The notes beneath the pieces are model-generated. The model did not search any database. It was not told the origin of the DNA and saw only the letters and a list, made by a program, of their open reading frames with translations. The position numbers and the translations under genes were made by a program. A stretch of 64,000 nucleotides of DNA from Escherichia phage AV123, in the sequence record OR352953.1. The stretch is one strand, 5' to 3'. The stretch's first letter is position 1; the number at the start of each line of letters is the position of its first letter. Positions 11,218 through 15,246 of this stretch are shown here, in pieces.

Positions 11218-12345
11218 ATGAAATACACGATTTATGGTGATATTGTAAGTGTAAATAAAGATATGGGCGTGGAATCTAACTATCTTCCACCTGGATTCTA
11301 TACTGTTAGTCGTGATCCCCTTGGCAATTACTTTTTAAGCCGTGGTAATCTAACAGGTGTACCGGATGTTCTGTATGGTGAAACAGAAAAACGAGCAAAT
11401 CACGTTATTCGTACATTCCATCGCCGGAGTGCACAAGGTAAAAATACAGGTTTGCTCCTGACAGGCACTAAGGGCAGTGGTAAAACTATGTTAGCCAAAC
11501 TCATTAGTCGTGACCTTGTAGAAGAAGGTATTCCAACTATTATGGTTACTCAAGCCTACAGCGATGCTAATTTCATTGAACTTATTAGCAAGATCACCGA
11601 CAAAGCAGTGATTATTTTTGACGAGTTTGATAAAGTATATGAGAAGAAACAAGATCAAGAAGCACTTCTCACTTTGTTAGATGGTACTGGCAGTGGTAAT
11701 AAACTGTTTATTCTAACTAAAAACAGTGGCTTTATCTCTGAATTCTTTCTAAATCGTCCTAGTCGTGTGTTTTATAATTTTAATTATGATAAAATCTCAC
11801 TAGAAACTATGATTGACTATTTAGATAAAAACCTGGATAACAAAGCACACTTTGATAATTTCCAAAGGCTTTGGGATGTAAGTTTAGAGTTGTCCTTTGA
11901 TGTGATCCAAGGTATAGTAGAAGAACTTAATTTCTACCCTGATTTATCCTTTAAAGAATGCATCTCTATGATGGGCGTTTCTTTGGGTGGTGGTAATAAG
12001 TGGGATATCAGCAGCGTTGTTATTAATGGGAAACTTCAGAAAGTTAGCTGGGTATCTAGTTGGCATAACTTCACACCTGCAATCTTTTTAGGTGGCTCGT
12101 GCACACTAGACGTGTACTTGTCATCTCCAAGTGATGCAGACTCTAAAGAAGCCCTTGCTAATAGCTCTTACGTGGTTTTTGATGATGAAGGAGATGCTCG
12201 AATTCCATTGAATGCGACAAAAATGAAAGCAGATCTTATTACAGGCGGTAAAATCGTTGTGTTTAGTGATGATCCAGAAGATTCTTTCCGTATTGTTCTG
12301 GAACCAACTATCACCAATGGTGCAACTTTGGCAAGCGTGTTTTAA
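11218..12345 (+). CDS. AAA-type ATPase domain protein
   Basis: Walker A GTKGSGKT, Walker B IIFDEFD; 375 aa. Confidence 0.65.
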   Translation: MKYTIYGDIVSVNKDMGVESNYLPPGFYTVSRDPLGNYFLSRGNLTGVPDVLYGETEKRANHVIRTFHRRSAQGKNTGLLLTGTKGSGKTMLAKLISRDLVEEGIPTIMVTQAYSDANFIELISKITDKAVIIFDEFDKVYEKKQDQEALLTLLDGTGSGNKLFILTKNSGFISEFFLNRPSRVFYNFNYDKISLETMIDYLDKNLDNKAHFDNFQRLWDVSLELSFDVIQGIVEELNFYPDLSFKECISMMGVSLGGGNKWDISSVVINGKLQKVSWVSSWHNFTPAIFLGGSCTLDVYLSSPSDADSKEALANSSYVVFDDEGDARIPLNATKMKADLITGGKIVVFSDDPEDSFRIVLEPTITNGATLASVF

Positions 12346-12361
12346 GTAAGCCAGCAAATAA

Positions 12362-12390
12362 AAACCCGCTCCGGCGGGTTTTCTTGTATT
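12362..12390 (+). terminator. rho-independent terminator
   Basis: CCCGCTCCGGCGGG hairpin followed by TTTTCTTG. Confidence 0.6.
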
Positions 12391-12419
12391 GATGCCAGAT
12401 TTAATAAGAGGAGTAATAG

Positions 12420-13409
12420 ATGACAGCACCAAAATCATGGGAACAATATAAAGAAGAGTGTATACCAATAGCAGAGAGTAAGCAAATCCAAATCTTAGGA
12501 TGGACGGGACAATGGAAAGGGGTCCACACAAAACTTGATTTGTTGTGCCATTGTGGTTATAAATGGGATACTACAAGTATTAACAGTTTTAAATGTGGTA
12601 GCGGTTGTCCACAATGTAGGAGGAAGAATATAAGGAAGTCACAAACAATGTCCGACGATCAACATATTGCAGATTTCTTTTCTACAGGGGAATTTAAGGA
12701 AGGCACTATCTTCACTAACACAGGAACACGGGGTAAAGGATGTAGGAATATTATCTGGATGGTTGAATGTCCTGTTTGCTCTCATGATGAATATGTTCAA
12801 GCAGGTGTTTGTGATGGTAAATTTTACTCTGAAGGAGATAACCTTAAACGAGGGTATATTCCGTGTCGTTGTGGGAACTATCGGTATACAGAAGACCAGA
12901 TCACCTATAGGGTAAAAAAGGAAGTAGAAGGGAAAGGGTATGTCTGGGTAGATTGGATTACCAAACCCTCTTCTATAGGTAAGTTTAAATATCTTTGTCT
13001 TGTGCATGGTGAGCAGATAGGGAGTGCTAATAATTTATTAAGCCTCGGTCGAGGTTGTCCTATGTGTGCTGGTCATAGTCAGCAGCAGTTATATATTAAT
13101 ATTGTTAAGGATGATAATATTATAGTTGCTCTTAAGTTTGGTATAGCTAAAGATAGTGATAGGCGATTAAACATTCAAAATAGCCGTAATCTGTTTTTTA
13201 TGGAACGTATTTGTTTATATGATTTTAGCACAGTGAAACAGTGTAAGGCTGCTGAAAGAGCTATAAAGAAAAAATTAAAAACTGGTATTTTAACAGCAAG
13301 AGAGTTGAAAGACGGTCATACAGAAACAGTAAGTGTTTCTGATTTGGAAAATCTTCAAAAAATTATTACACAATATGGTGGCAAGTTAGTATACAATAAG
13401 GAGGTGTAA
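12420..13409 (+). CDS. zinc-ribbon repeat protein with C-terminal T5orf172/GIY-YIG-like domain
   Basis: four C..C pairs; C-terminal YINIV..ALKFGIAKDSDRRL fits T5orf172 pattern. Confidence 0.45.
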   Translation: MTAPKSWEQYKEECIPIAESKQIQILGWTGQWKGVHTKLDLLCHCGYKWDTTSINSFKCGSGCPQCRRKNIRKSQTMSDDQHIADFFSTGEFKEGTIFTNTGTRGKGCRNIIWMVECPVCSHDEYVQAGVCDGKFYSEGDNLKRGYIPCRCGNYRYTEDQITYRVKKEVEGKGYVWVDWITKPSSIGKFKYLCLVHGEQIGSANNLLSLGRGCPMCAGHSQQQLYINIVKDDNIIVALKFGIAKDSDRRLNIQNSRNLFFMERICLYDFSTVKQCKAAERAIKKKLKTGILTARELKDGHTETVSVSDLENLQKIITQYGGKLVYNKEV

Positions 13410-13961
13410 ATGCGGATTACTGATAAGTATGTGTTCTTCTTTTCAGCAAAAGATGAATTTAGCAACTGGTATCTATCATCTTTTATTGAACCTTTAGCAC
13501 CCAAGTATAATAATTCTATTACAAGTTCTGTTGAATTTACTTGTGTGGAACAATATATGATGTGGAGAAAAGCATGTTTGTTTTATGATTACAGTATTGC
13601 ATCTTCTATTTTAACCGGAGATCTAAGATATACAGGAGAAAAAGAACAAGCATATTATAAGCGACTAGGCAGATTAGTTAAAGATTATGATGAAGATACC
13701 TGGACTTCTTTACGGGAGAAGATTGTCAAACGTGGTTTGTATCTTAAATACACACAAAATGAAGATCTCAAAAATAAACTTATAACCTACGCAGATAAGG
13801 AGTTCGTAGAGGCAAGCCCTTATGATTCTATTTATGGTATCAAAATGGGGATGTGGGATCGTGACGTGGAAAATAAGGACTGTTGGAAAGGACAAAATCT
13901 TTTAGGAAAATGGCATACAGACCTTGCTGTTTATCTAAAAGCACAATCTGATATTTCCTGA
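13410..13961 (+). CDS. NADAR (YbiA-like) domain protein
   Basis: 183 aa; FF.S..EFSNW, VEQYMMW.KA, SPYDSIYGIKMG, NLLGK motifs recalled from NADAR/DUF1768. Confidence 0.6.
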   Translation: MRITDKYVFFFSAKDEFSNWYLSSFIEPLAPKYNNSITSSVEFTCVEQYMMWRKACLFYDYSIASSILTGDLRYTGEKEQAYYKRLGRLVKDYDEDTWTSLREKIVKRGLYLKYTQNEDLKNKLITYADKEFVEASPYDSIYGIKMGMWDRDVENKDCWKGQNLLGKWHTDLAVYLKAQSDIS

Positions 13962-14175
13962 TATTTTGAAAATTTTTATTTTTATAAAAAGGGGTGTGGG
14001 TTTCATGTACGGAAATTCACCCTCTGAATAATATATTCAGAGTAAATATTATTTTGTACTCTGTTAATAAATTATTTAATTTGTTTGTTGGATTATGATA
14101 TCTGGTTTTTAAAAGGCATACTATCTCTTAACTACTATTTATAACAGAACAGTAAAATCATTTTTATAAAAAGGA

Positions 14176-14382
14176 CAAAATTATTTAAAGTTTTTACAGA
14201 TTTTTGGATACAAATTTTGAAAATGAAAAGTTCAAGTTTGGTCAAAATTATTTAAAGTTTTTGTATGTATTTCTATCCAGATTTTGAAAATGAAAACTTC
14301 AATTTTTTAAAAATTCCCCAGTTTATTTAAAGTTTTTTTGCCTTTTTCCGTAGAAAAATCAAAAATGAAAAGTTCAATTTCG
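14176..14382. repeat. three tandem ~65 bp AT-rich direct repeats
   Basis: units at 14176, 14243, 14320 sharing ATTTAAAGTTTTT...ATTTTGAAAATGAAAAGTTCAA. Confidence 0.7.
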
Positions 14383-14400
14383 TGTTTTTATAGGTGTGTT

Positions 14401-14513
14401 AATGAGAATCATTTTCGTTTGTAAATGAGAATCATTATCATTTAACTATGTAAGTGATAATCATTCTCACTAAGAGAATGAGAATCATTAGCAAATGAGA
14501 ATTTTTCTCATTT
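14401..14513. promoter_or_regulatory. cluster of five Fur-box-like palindromes (ATGAGAAT-C-ATTCTCAT family)
   Basis: copies at 14401, 14424, 14454, 14474, 14493; one symmetric substitution from E. coli Fur core TGATAATCATTATCA. Confidence 0.5.
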
Positions 14514-14774
14514 AGAGAATAACGCGCAGGGGTGGTGTTTGTCTCGCGCTCCCGTGTCCCCTCGCCATACAATAAGAATAGCATAACCAACAACAAAAGC
14601 AAGCGATTATTTTTATCTTTACATTTCTTTACAAATTTATTTTAGACGAGCTACCAGCGATCAACCTTCCAACCAGTGCCCCCTGGTATGTTAGCCCCGC
14701 CTTTACGCCGTGGGGATGGCGCTTCCTCTTCTGTATGTAAAACAGTATAAGCCCGATCCCTGGGCTTGTCAAGA

Positions 14775-15041
14775 TTATTTTTTGTTTTCTTGCCAGGATA
14801 GGACACCTAACCAAAAATACATGTCGCCCCGCGCCCCTGGCGGGATCTTGCTTTCCCCGCCGCCACTGCAAGCCCATAGATAACCATTTGCGAACGTATC
14901 AAAATGATCTATTTCTTCCACCTTATGATCGCCCAGGTTGAGAACGGTTTCAACCTTTAAGCCCGTTGCGCTTGCTACCTGGTGCACCGTGCCGCCTTGC
15001 CAGCCTAATGAGTGCATGAGGTGTGAAGTAGTATTTGTCAT
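14775..15041 (-). CDS. hypothetical protein in GC-rich island
   Basis: 88 aa; ATG 15039-15041 with AAAGGG RBS; GC-rich unlike surroundings; overlaps a second ORF (14629-14877) in another frame. Confidence 0.35.
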   Translation of the reverse strand: MTNTTSHLMHSLGWQGGTVHQVASATGLKVETVLNLGDHKVEEIDHFDTFANGYLWACSGGGESKIPPGARGDMYFWLGVLSWQENKK

Positions 15042-15152
15042 GGTATCGCCCTTTCTTTGATGTGCGCCCTGGTTGGCGCGGTAGAAAGATAATAGCCCTT
15101 TCCTTTATAGATAGCAAGCAAAAAAGAAATGAAAAAAAGATTAAAAAAGGGG

Positions 15153-15181
15153 TTGACGGTTGGAACGATTAACGCTATTTT
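15153..15181 (+). promoter_or_regulatory. candidate sigma70 promoter
   Basis: TTGACG-17-TATTTT upstream of 15247 ORF. Confidence 0.3.
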
Positions 15182-15246
15182 GTTAGCCGTTCCAGTGTGG
15201 ATCACTGTAGCAATTGTTGTTTCAATCATTCTATAAGGCGCACACT

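Follow-up and report, generated by a model that had tools for sequence, protein, structure and literature searches.

What kind of gene lies between a conserved AAA-type ATPase gene and a NADAR gene is the question raised by the window analysed here, a stretch of 64,000 nucleotides from Escherichia phage AV123 (OR352953.1), a Justusliebigvirus (phi92-like) E. coli myophage of the subfamily Stephanstirmvirinae. All features on which a sequence-only reading of this locus had been built (ATPase, terminator, multi-zinc T5orf172-like protein and NADAR) were found where that reading had placed them, on the plus strand. The ATPase gene (11218..12345; 375 aa), a homolog of phi92 gp221, flanks the insertion site on its upstream side; it is followed by an intrinsic-terminator-like hairpin (12361..12382), by the ORF in question (12420..13409; 329 aa), which encodes CapR zinc modules and a C-terminal T5orf172 domain, and by the NADAR/YbiA-like gene (13410..13961), a phi92 gp224 homolog that forms the downstream flank and begins directly after the stop codon of the ORF. 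In the following, homing endonuclease gene (HEG) serves as shorthand for ORF 12420-13409(+) and for its 329-aa product. The order ATPase-HEG-NADAR, with all three genes on the same strand, is kept in Justusliebigvirus, and the HEG is a free-standing gene in the intergenic space between the conserved AAA+ ATPase gene and the NADAR gene.

The signals around the HEG fit its free-standing position, with the terminator hairpin of the ATPase on one side, NADAR on the other and a strong ribosome-binding site of its own. The hairpin, found by scan and in the sequence, lies in the 74-nt spacer between ATPase and HEG and reads AAAACCCGC-TCCG-GCGGGTTTT (9-bp stem, 4-nt loop), followed by a T-rich tail; in the annotations of phages Paula and PATM, the hairpin 3' of the ATPase is listed as a terminator. 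HEG-less relatives also have a hairpin after the ATPase, and its type changes together with the HEG allele. The Shine-Dalgarno sequence AAGAGGAG (12407..12414, +), read directly from the sequence, ends 5 nt before the HEG start codon and is conserved in the allele alignment A4. Promoter-like matches are at chance level (17 found versus 15.1 expected), none of them convincing, and the HEG is therefore not assigned a promoter; neither a tRNA nor an Rfam family was detected anywhere in the 64-kb window.

The protein consists of an array of zinc modules followed by a nuclease domain. As a whole, it matches the CapR profile (PF21817) with 89.4 bits and T5orf172 (PF10544) with 21.5 bits, marginally above the cutoff of 20; when residues 220-329 are scanned alone, the T5orf172 match rises to 24.5 bits (E 4e-5). 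Among 50 relatives, all match CapR, 33 match T5orf172 and seven match MUG113, and the PHROG family phrog_681, named “endonuclease”, is hit at 4e-68. The profile searches thus leave the T5orf172 assignment of the earlier reading standing. Its count of “four C..C pairs” needs a minor correction: six half-sites (C43xC45, C63xxC66, C117xxC120, C149xC151, C193xxH196 and C213xxC216) make up three four-ligand zinc sites. Module 1 (residues 1-77; 12420..12650, +) is of CapR type I, with the ligands C43, C45, C63 and C66, and scores 44.8 bits alone. Module 2 (residues 78-154; 12651..12881, +) is of CapR type II, scores 47.4 bits alone and shows the canonical CapR spacing CxxC...CxC (C117xxC120...C149xC151). 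Module 3 (residues 155-219; 12882..13076, +), with the ligands C193, H196, C213 and C216, is a CapR/DUF723-like type I module, which alone reaches 21.3 bits with CapR (E 3.2e-4, below cutoff) and matches DUF723 weakly. At eleven of the 12 zinc-ligand positions, conservation among the 50 relatives is complete or reaches at least 90%: C117 and C216 are invariant, and C43, C63 and C66 in module 1, C120, C149 and C151 in module 2 and C193, H196 and C213 in module 3 are conserved to at least 90%.

The C-terminal T5orf172 nuclease domain (residues 220-329 plus stop; 13077..13409, +) has the fold of the GIY-YIG superfamily. Across an alignment of 50 sequences that extends down to ~31% identity, seven of its residues never vary: Y225, K239, G241, I242, R249, E279 and E302. 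Judged from the order of the motifs and from the predicted secondary structure, Y225, R249 and E302 are presumably the retained catalytic-type Tyr, Arg and Glu. The catalytic residues of I-TevI are R27 and E75; E302 would correspond to E75 of I-TevI and to E180 of Odn by motif position and secondary-structure order, as opposed to a printed structural superposition. Other searches with the HEG were uninformative: Foldseek with the whole model returned nothing significant, a sequence search against PDB chains gave only chance matches to antibodies, and no NCBIfam family was found for the HEG. PADLOC yielded nothing for either HEG or ATPase beyond generic P-loop noise.

The closest known system is that of the ICP1-type homing endonucleases. 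In tblastn searches, residues 27-258 of the HEG align to ORF165 (gp165) of ICP1 (NC_015157) with 32.5% identity (E 1e-26), a match in phage T5 has an E-value of 7e-7, and matches are present in 148 Vibrio phage records. Together with the T5orf172 match above cutoff, the invariant catalytic-type residues and the polymorphism of the locus among relatives (empty site, cassette replacement, repeat number), the homology to ICP1 gp165 and T5 lends good support to the earlier suggestion that the 329-aa protein is homing-endonuclease-like, and the HEG very probably belongs to the family of homing endonucleases with CapR zinc fingers and a T5orf172 domain. This family, its tandem CapR repeats and recombination between the repeats have been described before (PMC10448857; Barth, Dunham & Seed 2023). 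In the ICP1 HEGs, such as gp165 and gp174, tandem CapR-type Cys4 modules precede the T5orf172 domain, which forms the C-terminus; these genes are free-standing and adjoin conserved genes, and gp174/gp174* differ in module number by repeat recombination; in all these respects the window HEG resembles them. It differs in that it belongs to another phage lineage (E. coli Stephanstirmvirinae) and another locus, is fixed genus-wide with alleles of three to five modules at a single site, and has an array of two subtypes in a fixed plan, namely one to three type I modules, one type II module, one type I module and the nuclease. The window locus itself is not treated in the accessible part of PMC10448857.

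Three further systems are instructive, and it is from these characterised relatives (I-TevI, ICP1 Odn and PLE CapR) that a mechanism may be derived. CapR, the repressor of the Vibrio cholerae satellite PLE, has a homologous zinc-finger domain with CxxC...CxC ligands, which is needed for DNA binding (PMC8096241; Netter et al. 2021); it is a transcriptional repressor with a single DNA-binding domain and no nuclease domain (PMC8096241), whereas the window HEG has three modules and an apparently intact nuclease domain. ICP1 Odn (Gp88) supplies the proof by experiment that T5orf172 domains cleave DNA, and its catalytic Glu has been demonstrated (PMC8263062; Barth et al. 2021). It has the T5orf172 catalytic domain, including the conserved Arg and Glu, in common with the HEG, as well as the combination of a modular DNA-binding domain with a nuclease, but Odn has captured a RepA_N domain and targets the satellite replication origin (PMC8263062), whereas the HEG uses CapR modules. 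I-TevI and the Seg-type GIY-YIG HEGs of phage T4 are likewise free-standing intergenic insertions between conserved genes in which a domain of GIY-YIG fold is tethered to a modular DNA-binding region including a zinc finger. The domain order of I-TevI is reversed, its nuclease being N-terminal and that of the window HEG C-terminal, and the HEG has “KFG” in place of “YIG” and, as in other T5orf172 domains, no His/Tyr in the first helix.

The HEG is present in 55 of 55 Justusliebigvirus records, with three to five zinc modules; its alleles span 323-467 aa and begin with one to three type I modules, and the type II module is recognisable in nearly all of the 12 alleles examined. The DNA of the zinc modules is 72-98% identical between alleles or does not match at all, as opposed to 97-100% in the flanks, and dS is 0.37-0.50 in the zinc modules versus 0.07-0.12 in the flanks; the specificity-determining modules are hypervariable, and the nuclease domain is conserved. 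Over its first ~55 nt, module 1 of the window allele corresponds to module 1 of longer alleles, and from there on to module 2 of these alleles, the recombination junction being visible in the DNA alignment. The zinc-finger region is a recombination mosaic. Co-conversion tracts in the flanks are not evident, the 3' half of the ATPase gene and the 5' half of NADAR staying 97-100% identical. An additional family member lies close by in phiWec179; in the 64-kb window, local HMMs of the nuclease domain and of both zinc-module types as well as tblastn revealed no second one.

Outside the genus, the site can be empty or differently occupied. Universal conservation at the locus, which had been named as speaking against a mobile endonuclease, holds within the genus only (55/55 records) and breaks down across the subfamily: Klebsiella phage phi1_175008 and the IMG/VR contig L016, in which the ATPase is 74% identical, lack the HEG at the homologous site, and in phi1_175008 the gene directly after the ATPase is homologous to the one that comes after the HEG in Phapecoctavirus. 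The viral-contig scan with the ATPase gave four loci, too few for a quantitative survey of presence and absence. Between the Phapecoctavirus phages phAPEC8 and nieznany, the flanks are 97.6-99.5% identical, and the intergenic region and the HEG are unalignable; on this alignment, the HEG of Phapecoctavirus has been exchanged as a sharply bounded cassette, the flanks being nearly identical. The gene is also under purifying selection: in all 12 loci examined the ORF is intact, and dN/dS is about 0.25-0.42 and below 1 in every domain, for the zinc-finger region as derived from a protein-guided codon alignment; values of 0.25-0.4 indicate a functional gene.

These observations favour, with some confidence, an active homing or competition endonuclease, a reading based on the sequence and on analogy to the relatives above. 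The three zinc modules may fold independently, each around four ligands, and, like beads on a string, jointly read an extended DNA site, near which the tethered C-terminal GIY-YIG-type domain would cut using Tyr225, Arg249 and Glu302. During co-infection, a broken genome without the allele would be repaired from an allele-bearing genome, whereby the cassette, comprising the intergenic hairpin and the gene, would be copied between the conserved flanks. Recombination between the tandem zinc-module repeats could add, delete or swap modules and thereby alter specificity, which would give rise to the three-, four- and five-module alleles of the genus. The ATPase and NADAR genes would serve as conserved landing-site flanks only. 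Several observations count against this reading: the presence of the HEG in all 55 Justusliebigvirus records, and therefore the absence of a HEG-less target allele from the genus; fixation and purifying selection, which do not correspond to the classic cycle of invasion and decay of HEGs; the restriction of the empty site to a fairly distant lineage, in which the ATPase is 74% identical; flanks in which no co-conversion tracts are evident; the Foldseek search with the whole model, which gave no significant match; and the marginal T5orf172 score.

The fixation of the HEG in 55 of 55 genus members also gives a real, if minor, chance to a domesticated nuclease or regulator that has ceased to be a selfish homing element and is kept for the benefit of the phage. 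One candidate role is that of an exclusion nuclease directed against co-infecting relatives or satellites, the zinc array diversifying to track its targets as in ICP1 Odn, and another is that of a sequence-specific repressor, similar to PLE CapR or to the autorepression of I-TevI. Precedents are Odn (PMC8263062), CapR (PMC8096241) and the odn-like RepA_N-T5orf172 genes that occur in the same genus, in coliphages Inny and Muut (PMC10448857). Hypervariable specificity modules next to a conserved nuclease domain would also be in line with domestication, as would intact ORFs, a dN/dS of 0.26-0.42 and invariant catalytic-type residues, but purifying selection is equally expected for a HEG that still cycles among populations, and the exchange of a cassette between nearly identical flanks is the outcome to be expected from homing or allele competition. 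Moreover, the HEG is built like ordinary CapR/T5orf172 HEGs, without a captured foreign DNA-binding domain, PADLOC assigns no defence family, and in a search for a satellite or prophage counterpart, neither the HEG DNA nor its zinc modules matched any of 5,426 complete E. coli genomes; hence, there is no obvious satellite counterpart and no support at the DNA level for phage-satellite exchange at this locus. In a bolder form, to which only a small chance is given, the HEG would be a maintained, naturally “programmable” zinc-finger nuclease as opposed to a selfish homing element, its array being retargeted by recombination among old allelic lineages. It would then be a weapon for inter-phage exclusion or against parasites, analogous to Odn and built from CapR modules, and retargeted cleavage would act on co-infecting relatives or putative satellites. 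An inactive relic, that is, an old, fixed homing endonuclease gene that no longer cleaves and drifts towards loss, is very unlikely. Genus-wide fixation removes the targets for homing, the T5orf172 profile score is marginal, and the dN/dS of the HEG (0.25) is much above that of its neighbours (ATPase, 0.007; NADAR, 0.058), but it stays well under 1 in every domain, no frameshift or premature stop is present in 12 loci and 51 database clusters, and the Tyr, Arg, Glu and zinc ligands are invariant or nearly so down to ~31% identity.

The three genes might also form one nucleic-acid-targeting system, as the earlier reading had implied, with the ATPase as motor or regulator of the nuclease and NADAR as a partner; this is hardly credible. 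They lie on one strand with tight spacing, NADAR starting directly behind the stop codon of the HEG, and their order is conserved in the genus, but a terminator separates ATPase and HEG, two other genes lie between HEG and NADAR in Phapecoctavirus, and the ATPase occurs without HEG or NADAR in the sister lineage (loci L005 and L016, Klebsiella lineage and IMG/VR contig). The ATPase is also found in phages of Enterococcus, Bacillus, Staphylococcus and Lactococcus, which are absent among the main organism groups matched by the HEG, and the taxonomic ranges of the two overlap little beyond enterobacterial and Aeromonas phages. An ATPase that, unlike the HEG, hardly varies within the genus, evolutionary rates more than 30-fold apart, the lack of a PADLOC system match and the structural kinship of the ATPase with classic-clade AAA remodellers (Bcs1, Rpt, FtsH, NSF) likewise speak against such a module; ATPase, HEG and NADAR are neighbours and not a functional module.

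No new kind of system emerges from the HEG locus: the HEG is a typical member of a described family of selfish phage nucleases, well supported but ordinary. Its description nonetheless provides a precise annotation for hundreds of entries named “hypothetical protein” or “endonuclease” in therapeutic coliphages similar to phi92 and phAPEC8, and the locus is a compact natural case in which the modules of a beads-on-a-string DNA-binding array have been shuffled. It may be of use for studying how CapR-type zinc modules encode DNA specificity, and homing versus domestication in an easily handled E. coli system.

The flanking genes are well defined. An AAA-type ATPase with clear Walker A and B motifs had been recognised from the letters, and this is borne out by the match to Pfam AAA (PF00004; 38.9 bits, cutoff 21.2) and to phrog_2376 (E 6.6e-108). 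Walker A (G83-x-x-G86-x-G88-K89-T90) and Walker B (D135-E136) are both invariant among 61 homologs; the invariant residues comprise G83, G86, G88, K89, D135, E136, N169, R180 and R183. The AF2 model (pLDDT 90.6, pTM 0.80) finds Bcs1 (E 7e-9), proteasomal Rpt, YjoB, FtsH and NSF as its best Foldseek matches. The ATPase is a classic-clade AAA protein of the protein-remodeller type: with Bcs1, Rpt, the AAA module of FtsH, NSF and Cdc48 it shares Walker A and B, the sensor-1 Asn and the NRPxR motif of the second region of homology, at Foldseek E-values of about 1e-8 across ~250 residues. Unlike these, it carries a small beta domain of its own at the N-terminus and a beta-rich C-terminal domain (residues ~262-363), which is probably not covered by the best PDB matches, since these align only ~250 residues. 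The database names “FtsH-like protease” and “Zn metalloprotease” are misleading and are corrected here: the M41 domain is absent, no HExxH motif is found on reading the 375-aa sequence, and no peptidase family appears among the best 25 of 37 Pfam matches or among 24 NCBIfam matches. At the amino acid level, the ATPase is 99-100% identical in 54 phage records; a further record has 95-99% identity. NADAR matches PF08719 with 124.6 bits (cutoff 35.1; E 5.8e-36), TIGR02464 with 109.5 bits (cutoff 73.7) and the PADLOC profile PDC-M42C at 2.1e-34, and its amino acid identity within the genus is 98-99%.

The window belongs to the genome of an E. coli myophage of the genus Justusliebigvirus (Stephanstirmvirinae), a phi92-like phage. 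When the 3.4 kb surrounding the locus serve as query, Escherichia phage SD2 matches at 99.0%, and 54 further records reach at least 90% identity with no less than 80% of the query covered. ORF calls, Pfam and PHROGs confirm the three plus-strand ORFs that the sequence-only reading had described: (i) the ATPase at 11218-12345 (375 aa; Pfam AAA, PF00004, 38.9 bits; PHROGs ATPase, phrog_2376); (ii) the 329-aa ORF referred to here as HEG, at 12420-13409 (CapR, PF21817, 89.4 bits; T5orf172, PF10544, 21.5 bits against a cutoff of 20; PHROGs endonuclease, phrog_681, 4e-68); (iii) NADAR at 13410-13961 (183 aa; PF08719, E 5.8e-36; a PHROGs family of unknown function), whose ATG directly abuts the HEG stop codon. 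The 74-nt spacer after the ATPase contains the terminator reported earlier, a hairpin at 12361-12382 with a 9-bp GC-rich stem and a T-rich tail, and a strong Shine-Dalgarno sequence, AAGAGGAG, that precedes the HEG start by 5 nt.

When its parts are scanned alone, HEG resolves into two CapR modules (residues 1-77, 44.8 bits; residues 78-154, 47.4 bits), a weak CapR module with a faint DUF723 signal (residues 155-219, 21.3 bits, E 3.2e-4) and a T5orf172 domain (residues 220-329, 24.5 bits, E 4e-5). In an alignment of 50 relatives, reaching down to about 31% identity, all match CapR, 33 match T5orf172 (best E 3.5e-6) and seven match the sister family MUG113; with its own profile score above the cutoff, the T5orf172 assignment is correct. 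Invariant positions of the nuclease domain are Y225, K239, G241, I242, R249, E279, D298, G299, E302 and T303. Two of the 12 zinc-ligand positions, C117 and C216, never vary, and conservation is 90% or more at C43, C63, C66, C120, C149, C151, C193, H196 and C213. The zinc cysteines noticed earlier are present, but there are six half-sites instead of four C..C pairs, and together these make up three zinc sites of four ligands each.

The T5orf172 homing endonuclease lineage has been described by Barth et al. 2023 (PMC10448857). They report zinc-finger domains of the CapR, DUF723 or DUF4397 type in 87% of its members, often as tandem repeats (“beads on a string”), and in-frame deletions that arise by inter-repeat recombination (gp174/gp174*). 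CapR, a Vibrio satellite repressor whose DNA binding needs its four conserved cysteines, itself goes back to T5orf172 homing endonucleases of ICP1, from whose DNA-binding domain it derives (PMC8096241). For ICP1 Odn, biochemical work has demonstrated the nuclease activity of T5orf172 as well as its catalytic glutamate (PMC8263062). Since HEG matches this CapR/T5orf172 lineage, it is a member of an already described family, and the central “homing-endonuclease-like” interpretation was right. The family was detailed in 2021-2023, and HEG adds a new member to it at a new locus; the passages of PMC10448857 consulted make no mention of the ATPase-NADAR locus, and the gene it reports from Inny and Muut of the same genus is a different one, an odn-like RepA_N-T5orf172.

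HEG is carried by all 55 Justusliebigvirus records. The ATPase protein is 99-100% identical in 54 of these and 95-99% in one more, while HEG identity in the same records ranges from 60% to 100% and reaches at least 95% in only 10. Alleles of 323, 325, 329, 390, 396, 397, 403, 465 and 467 aa occupy this single locus, and all follow one plan: one to three N-terminal type I zinc modules (CxC or CxxH ... CxxC), one type II module (CPVC ... CRC), one type I module (CxxH ... CxxC) and the nuclease domain. The window allele, with three modules, is the minimum of the series; its first ~55 nt correspond to module 1 of longer alleles and the following sequence to their module 2, a one-module in-frame difference that stems from recombination between repeats. 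This within-genus series neatly illustrates a process that is already known; it is not a new phenomenon. Segment-wise comparison with eight genus members gave DNA identities of 97-100% for the flanking genes, 94-97% for the nuclease domain and 72-98% for the zinc modules; two zinc modules of phage PATM had no detectable match. Synonymous divergence is 0.37-0.50 in the zinc modules versus 0.07-0.12 in the flanks, so the zinc-finger region is a mosaic of old allelic lineages joined by recombination. Nei-Gojobori dN/dS is 0.007 for the ATPase, 0.058 for NADAR, 0.25-0.26 for the HEG nuclease domain and 0.28-0.42 for its zinc modules; the zinc-finger region is no decaying pseudogene, and ORFs are intact at 12 of 12 loci examined. 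Three GenBank records labelled “Campylobacter phage A150/A145/C3” (MG065639, MG065645, MG065656; e.g. locus L010) are ~95% identical to this E. coli Justusliebigvirus across the region, one of them being marked UNVERIFIED with host Campylobacter jejuni; this suggests host mis-assignment or contamination in the records.

Outside the genus, neither HEG nor NADAR is present within 5 kb in Klebsiella phage phi1_175008, whose ATPase is 74% identical. The next gene, 41 nt after this ATPase, is a homolog of phAPEC8 gp012, which in Phapecoctavirus directly follows HEG. An IMG/VR contig of the same lineage likewise lacks HEG; the site is empty in this lineage. Presence of the gene varies between lineages, but not within Justusliebigvirus, and genus-wide fixation is the one feature at odds with the classic presence/absence picture. 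phAPEC8 and nieznany share 97.6-99.5% identity in the upstream gene, ATPase, gp012 and gp011, whereas their intergenic region and HEG are essentially unalignable as DNA (394 versus 486 aa, 39% aa identity): the cassette has been sharply replaced. The hairpin after the ATPase stop codon (in the spacer 12346-12419 of the window and in loci L003, L004, L005, L006 and L016) tracks the HEG allele: the window and phAPEC8 have one type in common, the latter despite an ATPase 97.6% identical to that of nieznany, and nieznany and phiWec179 have another; the empty-site phages also possess a hairpin. Because hairpin type does not follow ATPase lineage, the mobile or replaced unit seems to include it. phiWec179 encodes an extra 317-aa ORF (L006 1657-2610, minus strand), which lies upstream of the ATPase at a distance of a few kb. 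Its C-terminal part is similar to the last zinc module and the nuclease of HEG (35% identity over query residues 152-321, E 6e-25). A counterpart is absent from the phAPEC8, nieznany and Justusliebigvirus loci, and the ORF is a second, polymorphic family member. Empty site, cassette replacement, travelling hairpin and extra member are what a mobile or competing endonuclease cassette would be expected to leave.

The best-supported reading, favoured on balance, is that HEG is a putative active free-standing homing or competition endonuclease. It may act in the following manner: the three zinc modules together would read an extended DNA site, and the tethered GIY-YIG-type domain would cut nearby. 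Recombinational repair from an allele-bearing genome would copy the hairpin-plus-gene cassette between conserved flanks, and recombination among zinc-module repeats could retune specificity. The main rival, that HEG has been domesticated as a nuclease for exclusion or against satellites, or else as a regulator, would fit both the fixation in the genus and the purifying selection; it is rather unlikely, given that 5,426 E. coli genomes hold no DNA-level counterpart and that no foreign DNA-binding domain has been captured. That HEG is an inactive relic is improbable, since its ORFs are intact, its catalytic-type residues do not vary and its dN/dS stays below 1.

Least credible of all is a three-gene functional system of ATPase, HEG and NADAR, which the co-occurrence data contradict. 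Relatives of HEG reside mostly in Escherichia, Vibrio, Klebsiella and Aeromonas phages, and ATPase relatives are found in Enterococcus, Bacillus, Staphylococcus, Lactococcus and jumbo phages; the terminator intervenes between ATPase and HEG, the empty-site lineage has the ATPase without HEG, and evolutionary rates are more than 30-fold apart. These points argue against a functional ATPase-nuclease-NADAR module, and the grouping made in the sequence-only reading is positional only.

The ATPase model (pLDDT 90.6, pTM 0.80) comprises four parts: a small N-terminal beta domain, the AAA core, its helical lid and a confidently predicted C-terminal beta-rich domain (residues ~262-363). Its best structural matches, Bcs1, proteasomal Rpt subunits, YjoB, FtsH, NSF and Cdc48, place the predicted fold with the classic protein-remodelling AAA clade, not with DNA-handling AAA+ proteins; since the best PDB alignments cover no more than ~250 residues, the C-terminal domain probably lies outside them. 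Walker A and B, the sensor-1 Asn and the NRPxR motif are invariant in 61 homologs. The ATPase has neither a peptidase domain nor an HExxH motif. Its database labels “FtsH-like protease” and “ATPase or Zn metalloprotease” are therefore unsupported and reflect nothing beyond AAA similarity. A second, weaker tblastn match in each Justusliebigvirus genome, with no second copy inside the 64-kb window, suggests a paralogous AAA gene elsewhere.

NADAR, correctly named from the start, clears both the Pfam and TIGR02464 cutoffs. It also resembles a candidate-defence model of PADLOC, PDC-M42C (2.1e-34), and shows a weak match to “DS32_2 NADAR family anti-phage protein” of NCBIfam. When encoded by a phage, NADAR could work against host defences of the DarT type, which rely on DNA ADP-ribosylation. 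The gene is followed by a gene-poor stretch of about 1.2 kb (13962-15200). This stretch holds a tandem repeat of 67 nt x2 (14176-14306), another repeat of 23 nt x2 (14397-14443) and several terminator-like hairpins, and its GC skew reverses locally. In phages muut and alia its homolog carries the annotation “repeat_region”, and it may be a regulatory or replication-related region.
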